This document shows, in pieces, positions 1,712 to 10,805 of a stretch of 32,038 nt of DNA; the first letter of the stretch is position 1, and each line of letters starts with the position of its first letter. Made by a program: the position numbers and the translations under genes. This stretch comes from a virus (taxonomy: Duplodnaviria; Heunggongvirae; Uroviricota; Caudoviricetes). The stretch is taken from positions 1 through 32,038 of IMG/VR virus record IMGVR_UViG_2778261509_000010. One strand, written 5' to 3'. The notes under the pieces were generated by a model. The model saw nothing but the letters and a program-made list of their open reading frames with translations, did not search any database and had not been told where the DNA came from.

Positions 1712-2011
1712 TTAACCAGTCTTTTGACCGGAGTGGGGCGACGTTGTTTCGTTTTGCCCAAAGTGTGCGAGAGCGGGCGCAATTTGCCCGGACTCAGGAG
1801 CGATCTGATTGGTCATGAACCATAAAGTGTATTTGGTGAATTGTGGGGTCTGCAGGATGTTCATCATGACATCTGTTGGAGGTGTTGAACGACCACTTTC
1901 ATAGTAACTCAGCGTGCCATACGGAACCCCTGTTAAATCAGCAAGTTGTTGTCTGCTCAAATACTCTGATTTTCGCATTAAGACTATCTTCTCGCTTATC
2001 GTGTTTGACAT
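1712..2011 (-). CDS. C: Immunity repressor C (99 aa)
   Basis: 99-aa HTH protein (QQLADLTGVPYGTLSYYESG) transcribed divergently from cox, upstream of int on the same strand. Confidence 0.9.
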   Translation of the reverse strand: MSNTISEKIVLMRKSEYLSRQQLADLTGVPYGTLSYYESGRSTPPTDVMMNILQTPQFTKYTLWFMTNQIAPESGQIAPALAHFGQNETTSPHSGQKTG

Positions 2012-2100
2012 GGTGTTTAGATCTCAATAGTATTTAGTTTAGATGTAGATTGTTCAGTGCTTGGATGTGTGCACTAAAAGGCATTATAAGGCATTAAACG
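2005..2100. promoter_or_regulatory. Pe/Pc lysis-lysogeny switch region with putative C operator direct repeats
   Basis: TTGACA (2005-2010), 17-nt spacer, TAGTAT (2028-2033) reading towards cox; GTTTAGAT direct repeats at 2015-2022 and 2037-2044 flank the -10; perfect TATAAT on the minus strand (complement of 2083-2088) as a candidate Pc -10. Confidence 0.5.
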
Positions 2101-2125
2101 CAATTCATGAGGGCTGGAGGACGAC

Positions 2126-2401
2126 ATGAGCAAGCAAGTAACACTCATGACTGATGCGATTCCTTATCAGGAGTTCGCAAAACTAATAGGAAAATCGACA
2201 GGAGCGGTTCGTCGGATGATCGATAAAGGAAAGCTGCCTGTAATTGATATGACCGATCCACAATCAGCTTCAGGTCGTGCAGGTGAATATTGGGTATACC
2301 TTCCGGCATGGAATAACGGACTAAAACTGGCTTATGAAAGCCGCCCTAAAGAGATTCGTGACGGCTGGTTGATGTGGTTAGGTCTCGGTGAACCACGTTA
2401 A
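2126..2401 (+). CDS. cox: Cox excisionase / transcriptional regulator (91 aa)
   Basis: First gene of the rightward early operon, GGAGG Shine-Dalgarno 6 nt upstream, size and position as for P2 Cox. Confidence 0.9.
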   Translation: MSKQVTLMTDAIPYQEFAKLIGKSTGAVRRMIDKGKLPVIDMTDPQSASGRAGEYWVYLPAWNNGLKLAYESRPKEIRDGWLMWLGLGEPR

Positions 2402-2411
2402 GGAGAACCGT

Positions 2412-2582
2412 ATGAATGAACCTCGTTGTATTGCTCAGTTACTGCGTAACGAAAGCCCCAGGGCGATTGACTTCACCATCACCCACGGTAAGGGGCGTAA
2501 GGGAATCATTATCCGCACCAAAAAACAGAGTCCGTTAAAAAAGGCTCTGACCTTTCTGAAAAGCCGGAGGGTATGGAAATGA
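2412..2582 (+). CDS. Small early protein (P2 orf78-like position)
   Basis: ATG at 2412 preceded by AGGAGA; position between cox and B. Confidence 0.5.
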   Translation: MNEPRCIAQLLRNESPRAIDFTITHGKGRKGIIIRTKKQSPLKKALTFLKSRRVWK

Positions 2583-3079
2583 CAGTGATGACGCTCAATC
2601 TCGTTGAAAAACAGCCAGCAACTATGCGCCGGATAATTGGTAAGCATCTGGCCGTCCCTCGCTGGCAGGAGACATGCGATTATTATAATCAGATGATGGA
2701 ACGCGAACGGCTAACGGTTTGCTTTCATGCGCAGTTAAAACAGCGTCACGCAACGATGCGTTTTGAAGAAATGAACGACGTCGAACGTGAACGACTGGTT
2801 TGTGCAATTGATGAATTGCGTGGGGCATTCTCAAAACGCCGTCAGGTTGGCGCAAGTGAGTATGCATATATTAGTTTTTTAACAGTCAGTCAGCGCCGTA
2901 CTTTATTTATGCACGCACGACTGACAGAAAAAGAATTTAACCAGCCATACTGGCGAATTAATGAGGAATCATGTTACTGGCGTGATGCTTTATTCCGTGC
3001 ATTACGTGAATTATTCAGTCTGTTTGAGTATGCACCGACAATTCTGACATCGGTAAAACCAGAGCAATATCTGCATTAA
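2579..3079 (+). CDS. B: Replication protein B (helicase-loader-like, 166 aa)
   Basis: Position between cox and A; ATG at 2579 is better spaced from GGAGG (2566-2570) than the ATG at 2573. Confidence 0.8.
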   Translation: MTVMTLNLVEKQPATMRRIIGKHLAVPRWQETCDYYNQMMERERLTVCFHAQLKQRHATMRFEEMNDVERERLVCAIDELRGAFSKRRQVGASEYAYISFLTVSQRRTLFMHARLTEKEFNQPYWRINEESCYWRDALFRALRELFSLFEYAPTILTSVKPEQYLH

Positions 3080-3142
3080 GTAATTAACCAGAGTTTTTAA
3101 CGCACTTAATTGTGCGGGGCTTCTTTTTGCCTGGAGAAAGTC

Positions 3143-3367
3143 ATGCATACAGTTTCTGAAAATCAGTGCGGTAAATACGCATTACTGCTGCAACAGGCCA
3201 GAACCGAAGCACAGGCCGATGCAGCGACGCGCTTTTCTTCTCATCTTGACGCCATGATTCACCACATCACAAAGGCGGAGTTATCCAGCGTGGAGATAGT
3301 CGAGCTGCTCAGTCAGGAGTCGGAAAAATTTCACAATATCGGATTGTCTCGCGGGGAGGTGCTTTGA
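3143..3367 (+). CDS. Small early hypothetical protein (orf80-like position)
   Basis: ATG at 3143 with GGAGA Shine-Dalgarno; the ORF-track start at 3110 is a TTG. Confidence 0.5.
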
Positions 3368-3669
3368 TGTCCTGTTCTCGTTCGGTTGTATTACTGAATA
3401 ACGCCTTAAAAATCGCCGTTATGAAAAATGGCGATTTATCTCTTATTCAACTTGGTCTTGATAAAGAAAAACGCGAAATAACTGAGTCTGTTATCGCGAT
3501 TTATCAGAATGAATTAAATCTCCTGTCTGATGTGGTCAATTTACTTGTTAAACGCGCTGTATTTCACAAGCAAATCTCCTCCGTGGATGAACTGACGAAA
3601 TTAACGACAGAAATTGCCAGCTATTGCGCTGATGAATTTAAAAAACTTAACGACAAAAGGAGCTGGTAA
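3367..3669 (+). CDS. Small early hypothetical protein (orf81-like position)
   Basis: ATG at 3367 after a GGGGAGGTG Shine-Dalgarno; translationally coupled neighbours. Confidence 0.5.
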   Translation: MSCSRSVVLLNNALKIAVMKNGDLSLIQLGLDKEKREITESVIAIYQNELNLLSDVVNLLVKRAVFHKQISSVDELTKLTTEIASYCADEFKKLNDKRSW

Positions 3670-3893
3670 TGCCGGACAACGTAGATTTTATTCAGGAACA
3701 ACAGGCTGAATTACTGGAGCGTCAGATTAACGCGGCAAGGGTAAAACATTGCGGTGCTTCTGCGCTGGTTTGCGAAGAGTGTTACGCGCCAATATCTGCT
3801 GCCCGTCGTGCGGCTTATCCGTCAGCCACGCGTTGTGTTTCCTGTCAGTCAGTCTTTGAAGCAAAAAACAAACATTACCGGAGAACGGCATGA
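3669..3893 (+). CDS. TraR/DksA-family C4 zinc-finger protein (74 aa)
   Basis: Cys pairs CEEC...CVSC with the typical spacing of the DksA/TraR zinc finger; start overlaps the upstream stop (TAATG). Confidence 0.7.
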   Translation: MPDNVDFIQEQQAELLERQINAARVKHCGASALVCEECYAPISAARRAAYPSATRCVSCQSVFEAKNKHYRRTA

Positions 3894-4165
3894 GTATTCG
3901 TATTGAAATTGGCGAACGTTATGTCGTTACCAGTGACAGCTTTCAGTTTATTCTCCACGAGAAAAAGAGAGCGGAAAGCGGTAAAAACGCCGGTCAGGAA
4001 TGGCTGGCAGTGGTTGGTTATTACCCGAAATTAAGCCAGCTCGTTTCCGGCCTGATGCATCACGATATTCTGACCGGAAGCGCAAAGTCTTTTGCTGATT
4101 TAAACGCGCAGGTTGAGCAACTCAGCAGGCGTTGTTCAGAGGCTTTTGGCTCATATGGCCGTTAA
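3890..4165 (+). CDS. Small early hypothetical protein (orf83-like position)
   Basis: ATG at 3890 with GGAGA Shine-Dalgarno; overlaps the start of A. Confidence 0.5.
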   Translation: MSIRIEIGERYVVTSDSFQFILHEKKRAESGKNAGQEWLAVVGYYPKLSQLVSGLMHHDILTGSAKSFADLNAQVEQLSRRCSEAFGSYGR

Positions 4166-6455
4166 AGCCTCCGGGCGTTTTGTCCCTCCGTCAGCATTTG
4201 TTGCAGGCACCGGTAAGGCGTTTACCGGTGCTTATGCATGGAACGCGCCACGCGAGGCTGTCGGGCGCGAAAGACCCCTTACACGTGACGAGATGCGTCA
4301 GGTGCAAGGTGTTTTATCCACGATTAACCGCCTGCCTTACTTTTTGCGCTCGCTGTTTACTTCACGCTATGACTACATCCGGCGCAATAAAAGCCCGGTG
4401 CACGGGTTTTATTTCCTCACATCCACTTTTCAGCGTCGTTTATGGCCGCGCATTGAGCGTGTGAATCAGCGCCATGAAATGAACACCGACGCGTCGTTGC
4501 TGTTTCTGGCAGAGCGTGACCACTATGCGCGCCTGCCGGGAATGAATGACAAGGAGCTGAAAAAGTTTGCCGCCCGTATTTCATCGCAGCTTTTCATGAT
4601 GTATGAGGAACTCAGCGATGCCTGGGTGGATGCGCATGGCGAAAAAGAATCGCTGTTTACGGATGAGGCGCAGGCTCACCTCTATGGTCATGTTGCTGGC
4701 GCTGCACGTGCTTTCAATATTTCCCCTCTCTACTGGAAAAAATACCGTAAAGGACAGATGACCACGAGGCAGGCATATTCTGCCATTGCCCGTCTGTTTA
4801 ACGATGAGTGGTGGACTCATCAGCTTAAAGGCCAGCGTATGCGCTGGCATGAGGCGTTACTGATTGCTGTCGGGGAGGTGAATAAAGACCGTTCTCCTTA
4901 TGCCAGTAAACATGCCATTCGTGATGTGCGTGCACGCCGCCAGGCAAATCTGGAATTTCTTAAATCGTGTGACCTTGAAAACAGGGAAACCGGCGAGCGC
5001 ATCGACCTTATCAGTAAGGTGATGGGCAGTATTTCTAATCCTGAAATTCGCCGGATGGAGCTGATGAACACCATTGCCGGTATTGAGCGTTACGCCGCCG
5101 CAGAGGGTGATGTGGGGATGTTTATCACGCTGACCACGCCGTCAAAGTATCACCCGACACGTCAGGTCGGAAAAGGCGAAAGTAAAACCGTCCAGCTTAA
5201 TCACGGCTGGAATGATGAGGCATTTAATCCAAAGGATGCGCAGCGTTATCTCTGCCGTATCTGGAGCCTGATGCGCACGGCATTCAAGGATAATGATTTA
5301 CAGGTCTACGGTTTGCGTGTCGTCGAGCCACACCACGACGGAACGCCGCACTGGCATATGATGCTTTTTTGTAATCCACGCCAGCGTAACCAGATTATCG
5401 AAATCATGCGTCGCTATGCGCTCAAAGAGGATGGCGACGAAAGAGGAGCCGCGCGAAACCGTTTTCAGGCGAAACACCTTAACCGGGGCGGTGCTGCGGG
5501 GTATATCGCGAAATACATCTCAAAAAATATCGACGGATATGCACTGGATGGTCAGCTCGATAATGATACCGGCAGACCGCTGAAAGACACTGCCGCGGCT
5601 GTTACCGCATGGGCGTCAACGTGGCGCATCCCGCAATTTAAAACGGTTGGTCTGCCGACAATGGGGGCTTACCGTGAACTACGCAAATTGCCTCGCGGCG
5701 TCAGCATTGCTGATGAGTTTGACGAGCGCGTCGAGGCTGCACGCGCCGCCGCAGACAGTGGTGATTTTGCGTTGTATATCAGCGCGCAGGGTGGGGCAAA
5801 TGTCCCGCGCGATTGTCAGACTGTCAGGGTCGCCCGTAGCCCGTCGGATGACGTTAACGAGTATGAGGAAGAAGTCGAGAGAGTGGTCGGCATTTACGCG
5901 CCGCATCTCGGCGCGCGTCATATTCATATCACCAGAACGACGGACTGGCGCATTGTGCCGAAAGTTCCGGTCGTTGAGCCTTTGACTTTAAAAAGCGGCA
6001 TCGCCGCGCCTCGGAGTCCTGTCAATAACTGTGGAAAGCTCACCGATGGTGATACTTCGTTACCGGCTCCCACACCTTCTGAACACGCCGCAGCAGTGCT
6101 TAATCTGGTTGATGACGGTGTTATCGAATGGAGTGACCCGGAGGTTGTGAGGGCGCTCAGAGGTGCATTAAAATGCGGACTGAGAACACCAAATCGTCAG
6201 CAAAGAAACGGAAGTCCGTTAAAACCGCATGAAATAGCGCCATCAGCCAGGCTGACCAGGTCGGAACGATTGCAAATTACCCGTATTCGCGTTGATCTTG
6301 CTCAGAACGGTATCAGACCTCAGCGATGGGAGCTTGAGTCGCTGGCGCGTGGGGCAACCGTAAATTATGACGGGAAAAAATTCACGTATCCGGTCGCTGA
6401 TGAGTGGCCGGGATATTCAACTATAACAGAGTGGAATCAATTTGATGACGGGTAA
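4155..6455 (+). CDS. A: Rolling-circle replication initiator A (HUH endonuclease)
   Basis: HUH-like motif PHWHMMLF and paired tyrosines in AGYIAKYISKNIDGY; ATG at 4155 preferred (the ORF-track start at 4113 is a TTG). Confidence 0.9.
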   Translation: MAVKASGRFVPPSAFVAGTGKAFTGAYAWNAPREAVGRERPLTRDEMRQVQGVLSTINRLPYFLRSLFTSRYDYIRRNKSPVHGFYFLTSTFQRRLWPRIERVNQRHEMNTDASLLFLAERDHYARLPGMNDKELKKFAARISSQLFMMYEELSDAWVDAHGEKESLFTDEAQAHLYGHVAGAARAFNISPLYWKKYRKGQMTTRQAYSAIARLFNDEWWTHQLKGQRMRWHEALLIAVGEVNKDRSPYASKHAIRDVRARRQANLEFLKSCDLENRETGERIDLISKVMGSISNPEIRRMELMNTIAGIERYAAAEGDVGMFITLTTPSKYHPTRQVGKGESKTVQLNHGWNDEAFNPKDAQRYLCRIWSLMRTAFKDNDLQVYGLRVVEPHHDGTPHWHMMLFCNPRQRNQIIEIMRRYALKEDGDERGAARNRFQAKHLNRGGAAGYIAKYISKNIDGYALDGQLDNDTGRPLKDTAAAVTAWASTWRIPQFKTVGLPTMGAYRELRKLPRGVSIADEFDERVEAARAAADSGDFALYISAQGGANVPRDCQTVRVARSPSDDVNEYEEEVERVVGIYAPHLGARHIHITRTTDWRIVPKVPVVEPLTLKSGIAAPRSPVNNCGKLTDGDTSLPAPTPSEHAAAVLNLVDDGVIEWSDPEVVRALRGALKCGLRTPNRQQRNGSPLKPHEIAPSARLTRSERLQITRIRVDLAQNGIRPQRWELESLARGATVNYDGKKFTYPVADEWPGYSTITEWNQFDDG

Positions 6456-6597
6456 TCGAATGGAATGATCCGGCGGTCGTGAGGGCGCTCAGAGGTGCAT
6501 TAAAACACGGTCTGAGAATACCAAATCGTCAGCAAAGAAACGGAAGTCCGTTAAAACCGCTTGCATTTGTGCCATCGCGAGGCTGATCAAATCAGGT
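6455..6597. repeat. Decayed direct duplicate of the A gene 3' region (copy of about 6123-6260)
   Basis: Long near-identical runs (GTGAGGGCGCTCAGAGGTGCATTAAAA; CCAAATCGTCAGCAAAGAAACGGAAGTCCGTTAAAACCGC) repeated immediately after the A stop codon. Confidence 0.75.
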
Positions 6598-6684
6598 TTG
6601 TGATAAATTACTAGTATTTATATAGACCTCGCTCAGTATGGCATCACACAGAAGTAATGTAAGCGTGGGGGGCGTGGTGTACCA

Positions 6685-6713
6685 TTGATATACGACGGTC
6701 GAAAATTTACATA
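6685..6713 (+). promoter_or_regulatory. Candidate sigma70 promoter for the cargo membrane gene
   Basis: TTGATA, 17-nt spacer, TACATA upstream of the 6729-7361 ORF; by eye only. Confidence 0.3.
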
Positions 6714-6872
6714 GCCGATTTCCTGTGATTGGTTTTCGTTATGCACTCTTTTCTGAAGAGATTAACTACTGATAGACTCAGGTTGGATGTCAGAATCGCT
6801 ATAGATTTCTTGCTATATATGTATTTTTCAATGAAAATGATCTCTGATTTAAACTGTAGTAAGGTGATTGGT

Positions 6873-7361
6873 ATGGATGGTTTATGGGAAAAAATATCGT
6901 CATATAATATATTTAATAATCTTTTTCCAGGTGCTCTTTTTATTTATCTTCTTGAGAGAATGACGAAGATCGTTTTATCTGGCGATGATTTAATAAAAAA
7001 TGTTGTCCTCTATTATTTTGTTGGCTTAGTCATTGGCCGGATTGGTTCTATCGTATTGGAACCTTTTTTAAAACTATCGCGTTTGATTAAGTTTGCTCCT
7101 TATAAAGATTATGTGTCAGCATGTGGTGTGGATGGAAAAATTGAAACTTTGCAAGAGATTGCGAATATGTATAGGACGATATTTTCAATGTCAATTATTC
7201 TTTTGGCGACATTGTGCGTTGTAGGACGGTTTACTGGCGAGACATATGGCTTATCTAAAATAACGTTGGCGGTTTTTGCTATTTTGTTTGTTGTCTCATA
7301 TATTAAACAAATAAGATACATAATATATAGAGTAAATGCTGTTAATAATAAGCTGCCGTAA
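6873..7361 (+). CDS. Multi-pass inner-membrane protein, cargo gene (about 4 TM segments)
   Basis: ATG at 6873 with AAGGTG Shine-Dalgarno 6 nt upstream; ORF is open from a TTG at 6729 (ATG at 6741 also possible). Hydrophobic segments FPGALFIYLL, VVLYYFVGLVIGRIGSIVL, IFSMSIILLATLCVVG, ITLAVFAILFVVSYI; strongly AT-rich. Confidence 0.6.
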   Translation: MDGLWEKISSYNIFNNLFPGALFIYLLERMTKIVLSGDDLIKNVVLYYFVGLVIGRIGSIVLEPFLKLSRLIKFAPYKDYVSACGVDGKIETLQEIANMYRTIFSMSIILLATLCVVGRFTGETYGLSKITLAVFAILFVVSYIKQIRYIIYRVNAVNNKLP

Positions 7362-7371
7362 GGCAGCTTTT
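7351..7371. terminator. Bidirectional intrinsic terminator between convergent cargo genes
   Basis: Hairpin AGCTGCC-GTAA-GGCAGCT overlapping the plus-gene stop, followed by TTTT on plus and an AT-rich tract on minus. Confidence 0.5.
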
Positions 7372-7374
7372 GAA

Positions 7375-8466
7375 TTATTCTTCGGTTCTATAGTTACTAA
7401 TGTATGATCGTGGAGTGGCTGTTTTCCATCCTGCCCTTTCAGGAGCATTATAAAAATGGTACTTACCAAGCCCCTCGGTGGCGATAACTTTCGCTCCTCG
7501 TCGAGTAAAGGCATTAATTACAGCTTGATGGGGATGTTTATCTGAACCTGGGGCACATGATACAAATGCGGTTATCTCCCTTTTTTCGCCTTCATTTACA
7601 ATGTTACCAACAAGTTTATCGAGAACATCAGGGCCTACATTTCTCCGGCTACCATGATGAGGTACTTGAATGAATCTTAATGATTCTTTATTAATGTATT
7701 GGGAGGCTTGATCTAAGGCTGTTATACCAGCATCGCCAGTGAACACTAACGTTCTTCCATCAATCTCAAGTTTCAAAATGACACTTGAGTTATTTTGTGC
7801 CGAGGTGGTATCGTCATTATCAATACCTTCATCAGTAAACCATTCAGCAACGTAATCAATAAATTTCTTCGTTTTTTCAACTACAGACTCAAAGACTGCT
7901 TTTAGTACTTCAAATCCAGCTGTATCCTCAGCTTTTTTGGGCATTCTTGCGAAATCAGGTATTAGAGTCTCATAGTAAGATTGGGTTGGCCCGATAACAA
8001 CCAGAGTAGCATTATCCCAGGTCATTCCTTGAAAAGGCTCTTTTATTTCAATTCCTTTTTTTTCCGCTAATTTGACAGCGTCATAAGCTTTTTGTAAGTT
8101 TTCTTTCATTCGATTTGCAATACTGGCATCAGTTATCCTGCCATCTGCAAACTCACTTGCGAGACCTTGATTATGTTCCCAAGGCTTATGAATCCAAAAC
8201 TCTTTTACTTCTGCATTTTCTAGAACAGATGTAAGTCCACCGACGTGGTCACCATCGGGGTGTGTGGAGATAAGCAAGTCAATAGTTTTTGTGCGGTAGT
8301 ATTTTTCAATATGCTCAATGACTTGTTCTCCGGTGCTGGCATATCCTGCATCAATAACGACAACTTTTTGTTCATCTCTTGAACCATGTAGGTTTCCCCA
8401 TCTGATGCAGATCGCATCGCCGCTTTTTTTTTCGCCAACAGCTAGAAAATCAATTTCGTAACCCAT
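7375..8466 (-). CDS. ComEC-like metallo-beta-lactamase-fold hydrolase (putative nuclease), cargo gene (363 aa)
   Basis: MBL motifs STHPDGDHVGG (residues ~67-77), VPHHGS and KHPH, resembling the ComEC C-terminal / Lactamase_B_2 pattern; ATG at 8466 with AAGGA Shine-Dalgarno; AT-rich. Confidence 0.8.
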   Translation of the reverse strand: MGYEIDFLAVGEKKSGDAICIRWGNLHGSRDEQKVVVIDAGYASTGEQVIEHIEKYYRTKTIDLLISTHPDGDHVGGLTSVLENAEVKEFWIHKPWEHNQGLASEFADGRITDASIANRMKENLQKAYDAVKLAEKKGIEIKEPFQGMTWDNATLVVIGPTQSYYETLIPDFARMPKKAEDTAGFEVLKAVFESVVEKTKKFIDYVAEWFTDEGIDNDDTTSAQNNSSVILKLEIDGRTLVFTGDAGITALDQASQYINKESLRFIQVPHHGSRRNVGPDVLDKLVGNIVNEGEKREITAFVSCAPGSDKHPHQAVINAFTRRGAKVIATEGLGKYHFYNAPERAGWKTATPRSYISNYRTEE

Positions 8467-8628
8467 TCCATATCCTTATTAAACTGTGAATTAACATGAA
8501 TCCAAGATGTTAAATCATATGGATAATAACGCAACTTTTCCGCAGTAAATACTGTGAGCGGATTTAATCTCGTCAGAACTAAAAGCAAGTAGTGTGACGA
8601 GGGACAATGAGTCTCTTTGGGGCGTTGG

Positions 8629-9168
8629 CTATGACACTGACGCAACCAGATTAACGCCGTGAGTCAGCAGATTTGTAATCACACCGGCAATGACCCCAGG
8701 AGTCCCATCTTTCACCGCACTGATCACTTTATCCCCCATCGTTTCATTTCCACCAAGCACCTCGGGTTTTTTGTTAAGAACTGTGAGCGCTTTTTCAGTA
8801 AGTCGAACATCGTAAAAATACGACTGATGGTCTGTGTTGTACTGAATGTACCCGTTTTCACAGAGAAAATTGAATGTACCTTCAACCACACTACGCAACT
8901 GATTTAACACTTTCATTTCTGGTGAGTTAAGTTGGTCAAAGTAGTCATCAGGTAGCGCGGCGTTAAATTTGTCGTAGTTAATCACCTGTGGTACGGGAAA
9001 ATTTTCCCATAGTACTGCAAAGATTTCCGCCGTTTGTTGGTTAAATAAATCGAGATTTTTCGACATGCAAAATTCCATTTCTTTTGATAATGAGTGGGTT
9101 AAACGCTGGACGAGGCAGATTACCACTCTGGCACAAAACAATGATCTTAGTTCACGCGAAGTTGACAT
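8629..9168 (-). CDS. Hypothetical cargo protein with Gly-rich hydrophobic C-terminus (start uncertain, 145-179 aa)
   Basis: ORF open from ATG at 9168; alternative ATG at 9066 (MSKNLDLF...). C-terminal GTPGVIAGVITNLLTHGVNLVASVS looks like a membrane-interacting tail. No family recognised. Confidence 0.55.
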   Translation of the reverse strand: MSTSRELRSLFCARVVICLVQRLTHSLSKEMEFCMSKNLDLFNQQTAEIFAVLWENFPVPQVINYDKFNAALPDDYFDQLNSPEMKVLNQLRSVVEGTFNFLCENGYIQYNTDHQSYFYDVRLTEKALTVLNKKPEVLGGNETMGDKVISAVKDGTPGVIAGVITNLLTHGVNLVASVS

Positions 9169-9259
9169 ATATACCGATAAGCTGGTTGCGCAGGCAACTA
9201 GCGTAGAACTCGCTCAGGTCATCAAGATGCTATTGAATTATATTCGAATGCACAAATAA
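9065..9259 (+). CDS. Possible small protein (64 aa), divergent from and overlapping the minus-strand cargo ORF
   Basis: ATG-initiated ORF; a plus-strand intrinsic terminator lies downstream at 9399-9425; no obvious Shine-Dalgarno. Conflicts with the 5' extension of the 8629-9168 ORF. Confidence 0.25.
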   Translation: MQNSISFDNEWVKRWTRQITTLAQNNDLSSREVDIYTDKLVAQATSVELAQVIKMLLNYIRMHK

Positions 9260-9398
9260 AATGATCTGTATCAATCTGTTAGGTGTCGTTTGTAAAAATG
9301 TGTGGACACGATTGTTCTGCTAATTGTTGTCAACATGTGCGTCAACAGTGAGATTGGTGCATTGCGCGGCCAGTGACAACTTTAAAAATTGGCCAAAA

Positions 9399-9425
9399 CC
9401 GGCACTATGAATGCCGTTTTTTTTG
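9399..9425 (+). terminator. Intrinsic terminator (plus strand)
   Basis: Stem CGGCA / TGCCG with 7-nt loop followed by T8 (9417-9424). Confidence 0.5.
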
Positions 9426-9582
9426 TGTTTTTTTCTGCGATACTCCTATTTTTAGCAGTGCATGCAATATGTGCGTGGTTTTGCATGTGCCTAAGTTGCA
9501 TGTTCTGGCTGTGCACCGTCAGGACGGACGCCCCTCAAAAGTGGTAATGCACCTGCATTAAAACCGACCTATGAAGCGGGCG

Positions 9583-9601
9583 GGCGAGGCGGGGAAAGCA
9601 C
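9583..9601. other. cos: cos-like cohesive-end sequence (GGCGAGGCGGGGAAAGCAC)
   Basis: 19-mer identical to the P2 cohesive-end sequence as I recall it; correct position between the cargo region and Q. Confidence 0.6.
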
Positions 9602-9743
9602 TGCGCGCTGGCGGTGGTGCTGATTTTATTTTTTCAGCGTCTCAGCGCGTCGTGACGGCGCTTAGTCTACCCGTTGTGGTGTTGGTGTGTCTGCGGGGTG
9701 TTTTGTGCGGTGGTGAGCGTGTGAGGGCGTGATGACGGGATGT

Positions 9744-9766
9744 AAAAAAGCCGCCCGCAGGCGGCG
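9744..9766 (-). terminator. Intrinsic terminator after Q (minus strand)
   Basis: GCCGCC-TGCG-GGCGGC hairpin followed by a T-run on the minus strand, immediately downstream of the Q stop. Confidence 0.6.
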
Positions 9767-9770
9767 ATGT

Positions 9771-10805
9771 TCAGCCGTTGTCAGTGTCCAGTGAGTAGTT
9801 TTTAAAGCGGATGACATCCTGACCGAGCCAGCCGTTTATTTCCCGAATCCTGTCCTGTAACGGGATAAGCTCATTGCGGACAAAGACCTTTGCCACTTTC
9901 TCAATATCTCCCAGCGACCCGACATTCTCCGGCTTGCCGCCCATCAACTGAAAGGGGATGCGGTGCGCGTCCAGCAGGTCAGCGGCGCTGGCTTTTTTGA
10001 TATTAAAAAAATCGTCTTTCGTCGCCACTTCACTGAGCGGGATAATTTTAATGCCGTCGGCTTTTCCCTGCGGGGCGTAGAGAAACAGATTTTTAAAGTT
10101 GTTGCGGCCTTTCGACTTAACCATGTTTTCGCGAAGCATTTCGATATCGTTGCGATCCTGCACGGCATCGGTGACGTACATGATGTATCCGGCATGTGCG
10201 CCGTTTTCGTAATACTTGCGGCGGAACAGCGTGGCCGATTCATTCAGCCAGGCAGAGTTAAGGGCGCTGAGATATTCCGGCAGGCCGTACAGCTCCTGAT
10301 TAATATCCGGCTCCAGCAGGTGAAACACGGAACCGGGCGCGAAGGCTGTCGGCTCGTTGAAGGACGGCACCCACCAGTAAACATCCTCTTCCACACCACG
10401 GCGGGTATATTTTGCCGGTGAGGTTTCCAGTCTGATGACTTTACCGGTAGTGCTGTAACGCTTTTCCAGAAACGCATTACCGAACACCAGAAAATCCAGC
10501 ACAAAGCGGCTGAAATCCTGCTGGGAAAGCCACGGATGCGGGATAAATGTCGAGGCCAGAATATTACGTTTGACGTAAATCGGTGAGCTGTGATGCACGG
10601 CAGCACGCAGGCTTTTTGCCAGACCGGTAAAGCTGACCGGTGGCTCATACCATCTGCCGTTACTGATGCACTCGACGTAATCCAGAATGTCACGGCGGTC
10701 GAGTACCGGCACCGGCTCACCAAAGGTGAATGCCTCCATTTTCGGGGCGCTGGCGGTCATTGTTTTTGCCGCAGGTTGCGGTGTTTTCCCTTTTTTCTTG
10801 CTCAT
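9771..10805 (-). CDS. Q: Portal protein (344 aa)
   Basis: Position and size; start overlaps the P stop (ATGA). Confidence 0.9.
   Translation of the reverse strand: MSKKKGKTPQPAAKTMTASAPKMEAFTFGEPVPVLDRRDILDYVECISNGRWYEPPVSFTGLAKSLRAAVHHSSPIYVKRNILASTFIPHPWLSQQDFSRFVLDFLVFGNAFLEKRYSTTGKVIRLETSPAKYTRRGVEEDVYWWVPSFNEPTAFAPGSVFHLLEPDINQELYGLPEYLSALNSAWLNESATLFRRKYYENGAHAGYIMYVTDAVQDRNDIEMLRENMVKSKGRNNFKNLFLYAPQGKADGIKIIPLSEVATKDDFFNIKKASAADLLDAHRIPFQLMGGKPENVGSLGDIEKVAKVFVRNELIPLQDRIREINGWLGQDVIRFKNYSLDTDNG

Follow-up and report, generated by a model that had tools for sequence, protein, structure and literature searches.

The slot between replication gene A and the cohesive-end site (cos) of a P2-like prophage was found to carry a two-gene unit that is already known as a prediction, the PADLOC candidate PDC-M48. 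The prophage is carried by the IMG/VR record IMGVR_UViG_2778261509_000010 (positions 1-32,038, in the following the window). By sequence comparison the locus is a member of PDC-M48, and its two genes encode a small inner-membrane protein (PDC-M48A) and a metallo-β-lactamase (MBL)-fold protein of the ComEC type (PDC-M48B). Together they form one of two independent cassettes which, according to the alignments, divide the four genes of the slot: the pair (approximately 6714-8623) and a block made up of orf3 and a 64-aa gene (8624-9446). The pair is probably a defence system or a system directed against mobile genetic elements. As the best composite explanation, and one that we favour on balance, PDC-M48 would be a prophage-borne defence in which an MBL DNase effector is controlled by its membrane partner, with the orf3 block separate. 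The pair cassette comprises the following features.

6873-7361, plus strand: 162-aa inner-membrane protein, PDC-M48A (PADLOC PDLC04670, 1.7e-50; phrog_11864, 2.5e-97; hydropathy; alignments A3 and A6)
7375-8466, minus strand: 363-aa ComEC-type MBL-fold metallo-hydrolase, PDC-M48B, predicted DNase (Pfam Lactamase_B, 6.8e-12; PADLOC PDLC04676, 7.4e-101)
8467-8623, minus strand: region upstream of the MBL gene, part of the pair cassette (blastn block boundaries)

Both genes are adjacent and gave full-length matches to the PDC-M48 A and B models, and the locus did not differ from the candidate at the sequence level. PDC systems are 145 candidates inferred from their embedding in BREX, DISARM and type I restriction-modification (R-M) loci, which entered PADLOC without testing (Payne et al., bioRxiv 10.1101/2024.01.29.577857). 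WP_001752367, WP_001752365 and WP_001752366 are listed as a P2 hotspot arrangement 'hypothetical + hypothetical + Lactamase_B' in Table S5 of Rousset 2022, where the arrangement with the pair only is likewise found (PMC9122126). Within that supplement, 'Lactamase' occurs in Table S5 only and is absent from Table S2, which holds the cloned systems; hence, no Lactamase_B system was cloned (PMC9122126). None of the named validated systems was matched in PADLOC, Pfam, NCBIfam or PHROGs, the PADLOC matches of the three proteins originally described being restricted to PDC-M48 and relatives of the MBL protein. The original prediction, made from the letters alone, had found no named system to which these genes could be assigned; its suggestion that the genes may be undescribed was not supported, given the profile matches to PDC-M48A and PDC-M48B and the presence of the trio of accessions in Table S5 (PMC9122126).

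The MBL and membrane genes are convergent, with their stop codons 13 nt apart. The PDLC04676 match covers residues 3-357 of the 363 residues of the MBL protein. Across 28 sequences at 50-80% identity (alignment A1), the metal ligands H69, D71, D73 and H74 (HxDxDH; H69-P-D71-G-D73-H74), H93, D245 and H270/H271 were invariant, and TSAxNNSSV and KHP were found as further conserved motifs. Because ligands and motifs are invariant, the protein is very probably an active metallo-enzyme. The nearest solved structures by sequence are the ComEC MBL nuclease domains 9ic4 and 30bt. An AlphaFold2 model (predicted local distance difference test, pLDDT, 82.8) gave the ComEC MBL domain 9ic4 as best fold match in the PDB (E 1.5e-13, TMt 0.73), and RNase J and CPSF73-type nucleases were found among the lower matches, with a phosphodiesterase also among the next-best. 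Compared with ComEC, approximately 75 extra residues are present, some of them in a loop at 181-197 that is variable and disordered (pLDDT <50). PADLOC relatives of the protein are LmuA (2e-29), RTasMBL (3e-20) and Avs1a (2.5e-14).

Neither a hydrophobic segment nor a signal peptide was detected in the MBL protein. A Competence (PF03772) channel and an OB/DUF4131 domain were likewise not found, all Pfam matches being of the Lactamase_B type, and the ComEC/Rec2 model TIGR00361 scored 49 bits against a cut-off of 190 bits. Judged by these features, a soluble nuclease-domain protein of the cytoplasm is predicted, not a competence protein. In RefSeq it bears the name 'ComEC/Rec2 family competence protein', which is misleading since the nuclease domain alone is present. 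The earlier description as a ComEC-like MBL hydrolase is upheld by sequence and fold. In phage P24E6b (NC_049389) the MBL protein is labelled 'tail protein', a name that stems from phrog_7043, a chimeric profile of 1077 positions that was matched only at 619-901.

For the membrane gene, 6873 (162 aa) and not 6729 is most likely the start, since this is where the homologues, the RefSeq gene and the profiles of PADLOC and PHROG begin. The PDLC04670 match corresponds to residues 49-207 of the long open reading frame (ORF) starting at 6729, that is, to the entire 162-aa protein. Hydropathy analysis, the only source used for the segments, gave three strong hydrophobic segments (44-60, 102-118 and 126-142) and a weak one (13-29). 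The C-terminal tail is basic, with three K/R and no D/E residues, and is therefore predicted to be cytoplasmic by the positive-inside rule; together with hydropathy, the same rule would place the conserved 64-100 loop in the cytoplasm. Invariant polar motifs (SSYNIFN, PG, YYFxG..R.GS...EP, NxYRT and KQ..Y...R) and invariant polar residues (R56, E63, N98, Y100, R101, K145, Q146 and R153) were observed, and this invariance argues that the protein may be more than an anchor. At 50% identity, the short-type family to which it belongs counts 1206 representatives (E <=1e-3), nearly all of 160-200 aa. The public name 'phosphohistidine phosphatase' for this protein was without Pfam or NCBIfam support.

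Conservation of the pairing was assessed using an MBL profile built from 28 homologues (alignment A1), which was scanned against one genome per species and gave 382 relatives. These were distributed over more than 10 phyla and included members of Gammaproteobacteria, Planctomycetota, Acidobacteriota, Bacteroidota, Cyanobacteria, Streptomyces, Saccharibacteria and other groups. Neighbours were analysed for the best 80 of the 382 loci. At 75 of these, an adjacent protein of 157-278 aa with two to four hydrophobic segments was present (three or four in nearly all). Its gene lies directly downstream on the same strand in 69 cases, upstream and divergent in four, upstream on the same strand in one and convergent in one. 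Three of the five loci without an adjacent partner are contig ends. Homologues of the membrane protein of the window adjoin MBL proteins of the PDC-M48B type in Faecalibacillus (Firmicutes), in a Porphyromonas conjugative transposon and on a metagenome contig, with varying gene order. The membrane and MBL genes thus form, in these genomes, a unit that is conserved across distant lineages.

At least three partner families were distinguished: a common long type (205-270 aa), the short type found in the window and a third small type. The latter was observed downstream of the MBL gene at two loci, L063:6082-6609 (a Sedimentisphaerales metagenome-assembled genome) and L074:1907-2377 (an unclassified uncultured bacterium), is unrelated by sequence and gave no PADLOC match. 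The PDC-M48A models cover the short type only; of the commoner pairs with a 205-270-aa partner, the Vibrio and Chromobacterium examples gave no match, and one of 38 long-type members gave one. Homology between short and long types could not be demonstrated (hhalign probability 3-30%, scattered hidden Markov model (HMM) matches of 1e-6 to 0.2), and no superfamily is claimed. The families align only at an NxYR(T/D)+transmembrane (TM) motif. Mean identity is 50% for the MBL protein and 22% for the membrane partner. MBL proteins with a short partner nest among those with a long one, and the MBL protein of locus L035 is 60% identical to a Vibrio MBL protein with a long partner. A conserved MBL protein beside a diverging partner fits a conserved effector combined with an exchangeable, fast-evolving sensor or anchor.

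At some loci a further gene was observed. In marine Gammaproteobacteria (L017, L023, L026, L037, L055 and L008), a gene for a soluble protein of 177-260 aa recurs on the same strand as the MBL gene, which it precedes by approximately 160 bp; in Vibrio, this protein gave a weak match to PADLOC PDC-S63 (2.3e-7). It may belong to the system as a third component, or be a single-gene candidate next to it. In Faecalibacillus intestinalis (L095-L097), a DUF4365 protein with a weak PADLOC match to an Argonaute-associated restriction endonuclease (8e-9) precedes a membrane -> MBL pair, which could be a three-gene variant.

The surroundings of the pair, with the P2 hotspot itself among them, speak for a defence role. 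In Vibrio, its neighbours are a type I R-M or AAA_15 system on one side and a VWA-PP2C-kinase cluster on the other; in Chromobacterium, it adjoins Tn7-like TniB and TniQ genes; and in Porphyromonas (Bacteroidales), it is located within a conjugative transposon. In a descriptive census of the 136 ORFs immediately beside 72 pairs (alignment A5), made with no background control, the type I R-M specificity subunit HsdS was the commonest family (8-9 of 136). Other families were VWA (4), MoxR-vWA (3), integrases (3), TniQ/TnsD (3 and 2), NERD (2), UvrD (2) and PLD (2). A 5'-nucleotidase (PF06189) and DUF7004 were also observed, five times each.

Several characterised systems share a component with the pair. 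Three studies published in 2025 showed that MBL proteins of the Lamassu, DRT, AVAST and Hachiman type are DNase proenzymes, in which disordered insertions block the active site until they are cut by a fused trypsin-like protease (bioRxiv 2025.09.03.673762, PMC12799240, PMC12642450). These trypsin-MBL systems (Hachiman HamM, AVAST type 1 Avs1a, Lamassu and DRT) have a ComEC-like MBL fold that, by the PADLOC matches to LmuA, RTasMBL and Avs1a, appears homologous to the one described here, with the NCBIfam Avs1a score far under its cut-off. In them, however, the protease is fused to the sensor (HamA, Avs, LmuA or the reverse transcriptase (RT)), whereas the four ORFs of the slot gave no protease, STAND or helicase match. 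They carry two disordered insertions; the MBL protein of the window has one low-confidence loop (181-197) and the extra segment of approximately 75 aa. Its partner is a small membrane protein instead. The 6A-MBL system of P. aeruginosa (NF058524), a validated defence, has the MBL-fold component in common, but a ubiquitin-like '6A' partner is absent here. With ComEC/Rec2, the MBL nuclease domain and its HxDxDH metal site are shared, and the Competence TM channel and N-terminal OB domain are lacking.

A comparable combination, a small protein of the 4-TM type linked to a competence-type MBL nuclease, is seen for the Csx27 family, an accessory of type VI-B CRISPR loci, although homology is unproven. 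Csx27 was reportedly described by Makarova et al. in 2019 (FEMS Microbiol Lett; cited in PMC7642515) as a 4-TM family linked to competence-type nucleases, for which a DNA channel was proposed. The Csx27 HMM matched the membrane protein of the window with an E-value of 0.25, and homologues and alternative partners of both types with 0.0039, 1.7e-4, 6e-5 and 1.6e-6, all of them weak matches. Unlike Csx27 loci, no Cas13b, ubiquitin-system or WYL gene was found near the pair.

The position of the pair in the prophage was defined by the following features.

4155-6455, plus strand: P2 gene A, replication endonuclease, left border of the hotspot (ORF; 2301-nt 'replication endonuclease' of RefSeq in the identical locus)
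6435-6713, plus strand: decayed, out-of-frame duplicate of the A 3' region, a copy of approximately 6102-6388 (direct repeats D1, D8 and D2, spacing 325-333)
9583-9601, plus strand: P2/P4 cos core, 19-nt cohesive end, right border of the hotspot (exact match; 0.02 expected by chance)

The cos core reads GGCGAGGCGGGGAAAGCAC and is perfect over 19 nt relative to P2/P4; beyond it, from 9771 onwards, lie the minus-strand genes for portal (Q) and terminase (P). With the A stop at 6455 and cos at 9583-9601, 6456-9582 is exactly the A-to-cos slot, which in P2-like prophages of E. coli is a hotspot for anti-phage cargo (Rousset 2022, PMC9122126). The canonical occupants, old and tin, are exclusion genes expressed from the P2 prophage (PMC9122126). 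They use the same slot and the same strand as the MBL gene and have no sequence similarity to the slot proteins, among which no Old or Tin match (ATPase-TOPRIM or Tin homology) was obtained in PADLOC or Pfam. The GC content of 6456-9582 is 0.398 (membrane gene 0.323, MBL gene 0.402), as against 0.530 for A, 0.527 for Q and 0.570 for P. The original prediction had recognised the slot as a known P2 defence hotspot, its AT-rich swapped-in cargo in a GC-rich backbone, the absence of both old and tin, and the decayed duplicate of the A 3' end at its border. All of this was borne out, as were the three proteins that it described: a membrane protein at 6729/6873-7361 (plus strand), an MBL protein at 7375-8466 (minus strand) and a protein of 145-179 aa at 8629-9066/9168 (minus strand).

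The remainder of the slot consists of the following features.

8629-9066, minus strand: orf3, 145-aa winged-helix-like protein with a Gly-rich hydrophobic C-terminal helix (phrog_2266)
9065-9259, plus strand: 64-aa gene, divergent from orf3 (phrog_2454, 3e-35, full length)
9295-9558, minus strand: remnant of an 89-aa ORF annotated in other P2-like prophages (WP_001177885; tblastn 34% identity, E 1e-10; two in-frame stops)

In the original prediction, the membrane protein, the MBL protein and orf3 had been combined in one candidate three-gene anti-phage module that may be undescribed. This reading is given a very slight chance. In its favour, 23 E. coli genomes carry all three genes side by side (identity >=99%), and the MBL gene and orf3 lie on the same strand, 162 nt apart. 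Comparison of the hotspot across P2-like prophages nevertheless separated orf3 from the pair. The region 8624-9800 is colinear, at 75-78% nt identity, with an O157:H7 P2-like prophage, Klebsiella phage ST147-VIM1phi7.1 and phage Midge, and homology to other orf3-bearing phages begins exactly at the orf3 stop codon (approximately 8624; blastn). The neighbours of orf3 are helix-turn-helix (HTH) and RT cargo in O157:H7 and ST147-VIM1phi7.1; in Midge, just a small hypothetical gene and a DinI-like gene are found, with neither the pair nor the HTH/RT cargo. Conversely, the pair is the sole occupant of the slot in E. coli 118UI and in a Yersinia enterocolitica P2-like prophage, phage 12W carries it without an annotated orf3 homologue, and in strain QEC11-421 pair and orf3 are located in different prophages. 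Among 5426 complete E. coli genomes, the pair was found in 45 (23 with this allele, 22 with an allele approximately 72% identical), every match covering at least 87% of the two-gene query, and orf3 in 79. The orf3 family is restricted to Enterobacterales (69 clusters), while the pair spans many phyla. Occurrence apart, different taxonomic ranges and the boundary at the orf3 stop thus set orf3 and the 64-aa gene apart as a separate block, and the pair is already modelled on its own as PDC-M48. Of the proposed anti-phage module, the membrane/MBL pair remains as a credible candidate for which no experimental characterisation was found; orf3 does not belong to it, and the fourth gene at 9065-9259 had been missed.

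Based on these observations, the following mechanism is proposed. The pair would defend against superinfecting phages or other incoming DNA, with the MBL protein as the effector, a metal-dependent DNase; this role is suggested because the protein is homologous to defence MBL proteins that were shown biochemically to be DNases. The fast-evolving membrane protein would hold the MBL protein localised or inactive, and would free or position it upon perturbation of the inner membrane by infection or DNA entry. Likely contact surfaces for the MBL protein would be the predicted cytoplasmic loop 64-100 and the basic C-tail of the membrane protein. The outcome could be abortive infection via bulk DNA degradation, or exclusion via degradation of DNA at entry. 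More tentatively, the pair may represent a protease-independent, membrane-gated MBL-nuclease effector, a minimal 'split ComEC', in which the membrane protein senses DNA entry or envelope perturbation and recruits or unleashes the DNase at the inner membrane.

A number of points weigh against a defence function of this kind. No paper mentioning or testing PDC-M48 was found in the literature, nor any experimental characterisation or phenotype of the pair, and other PDC candidates were validated in 4/8 and 0/2 cases in two published studies. The NCBIfam scores of the MBL protein are far under the cut-offs for the nearest defence families (Avs1a, 62 versus 420 bits; 6A-MBL, 33.9 versus 220 bits), and its second-best fold match is Pce phosphorylcholine esterase, the MBL fold being catalytically versatile. 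No recognisable sensor domain was found in the proteins of the locus. The activation step is purely one that we infer, the activating protease of the related systems being absent, and the topology of the membrane protein is based solely on hydropathy and the positive-inside rule. Finally, the pair genes of Enterobacterales are convergent and cannot form one operon.

Other functions of the pair were weighed against the controlled DNase effector. The membrane protein could form or join an inner-membrane conduit, a 'split ComEC' in which the MBL protein degrades DNA as it enters, resulting in superinfection exclusion or an anti-plasmid effect without cell death. This reading follows the prediction reportedly made by Makarova et al. 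in 2019 for proteins of the Csx27 family linked to competence nucleases. In ComEC, a channel through the membrane and this nuclease domain are combined, ComEC MBL domains gave the best matches by sequence as well as by fold, the Csx27 HMM gave weak matches in both partner types, and the pair is also present on conjugative and Tn7-like elements. We nevertheless consider entry exclusion unlikely: the weak Csx27 matches do not establish homology, the partner is a small protein with no recognisable Competence or OB domain, and the nearest characterised defence MBL proteins are abortive DNases that degrade all DNA. Alternatively, the killing effector might be the membrane protein, acting as a pore or by depolarisation, with the MBL protein as sensor, regulator or antitoxin-like partner. 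Small multi-TM proteins serve as effectors in several defence systems, and the invariant charged residues R56, E63 and R101 lie in or beside hydrophobic segments. Such a division of roles is improbable, as strict conservation of the catalytic centre points to enzymatic activity as the function under selection, and the exchange of three apparently unrelated partner families around a conserved MBL protein is expected of a sensor or anchor, not of an effector.

A role outside immunity was also taken into account, either as a phosphodiesterase of lysogenic conversion or housekeeping that acts on a small molecule or an envelope component, or as selfish cargo. The versatility of the MBL fold speaks for it, with Pce and a phosphodiesterase among the second-best fold matches, as do the 5'-nucleotidase among the flanking ORFs (5/136) and the fact that approximately one quarter of P2 hotspots hold non-defence cargo (PMC9122126). 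Its chances are slim all the same: the enzyme has no signal peptide and is predicted to be cytoplasmic, its nearest homologues are nucleases, and the pair recurs beside or inside R-M loci and on mobile elements. A prophage-borne defence with a DNase effector under control of the membrane partner is retained as the preferred explanation.

Within the second cassette, orf3 most likely starts at 9066 (145 aa) rather than at 9168 (179 aa). Its C-terminal tail is GTPGVIAGVITNLLTHGVNLVASVS, and the structural model (pLDDT 90.2) has a winged-helix-like core followed by the C-terminal hydrophobic helix. Searches gave no specific relative. The ratio of nonsynonymous to synonymous polymorphism (pN/pS) is 0.08-0.14 for orf3 and 0.25-0.38 for the 64-aa gene, which is present and annotated in O157:H7, the Klebsiella phage and Midge, is unannotated in the identical RefSeq locus NZ_CP103515 and is under purifying selection. 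The start codons of the two genes overlap by 2 nt. They may be a regulator and partner pair beside cos, and the function of this cassette (8624-9446), a cos-proximal block that many P2-like phages have in common, is probably regulatory. The remnant at 9295-9558 is either a pseudogene or DNA kept for cos function.

At the left edge of the slot, 6120-6244 is repeated at 6452-6576 (125 nt, 89% identity). Translation of 6455-6586 gives IEWNDPAVVRALRGALKHGLRIPNRQQRNGSPLKP, compared with IEWSDPEVVRALRGALKCGLRTPNRQQRNGSPLKP in A, in a frame that differs from that of the A stop. This duplicate of the A 3' end looks like the scar of a cassette exchange via recombination inside A. In 17 E. coli loci, an insertion of 291 bp seemed to be present but was discarded, as it resulted from BLAST joining pieces over the A 3' direct repeat; gene spacing is identical. 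A promoter and terminator scan of the locus gave four promoter-like sites versus 8.7 expected, which is not above chance, and was not used. In NZ_CP042336.1, coordinate 1 of the chromosome is the first base of P2 gene A, as was checked, and in at least seven further independent complete E. coli assemblies the locus is located at the same record position, 1955-5496. Presumably, the prophage replication gene was mistaken for a replicon start gene by a start-fixing tool.

For annotation, the names 'ComEC/Rec2 competence protein', 'phosphohistidine phosphatase' and the PHROG label 'tail protein' are unsupported. The slot of the window indicates that the A-cos region of P2 can stack independently exchanged cassettes. 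If true, a membrane-gated 'split ComEC' would mean a new way of activation in a nuclease family of which only protease-activated proenzymes are currently known; such a system would occur in at least 382 species of more than 10 phyla, with at least three interchangeable families of membrane partners. If validated, PDC-M48 would be a widespread two-gene addition to the defence repertoire and would indicate that control of a ComEC-type nuclease can lie with a membrane protein instead of a protease, which would bear on the exclusion of competitors by prophages and on the co-option of DNA-uptake machinery for immunity.

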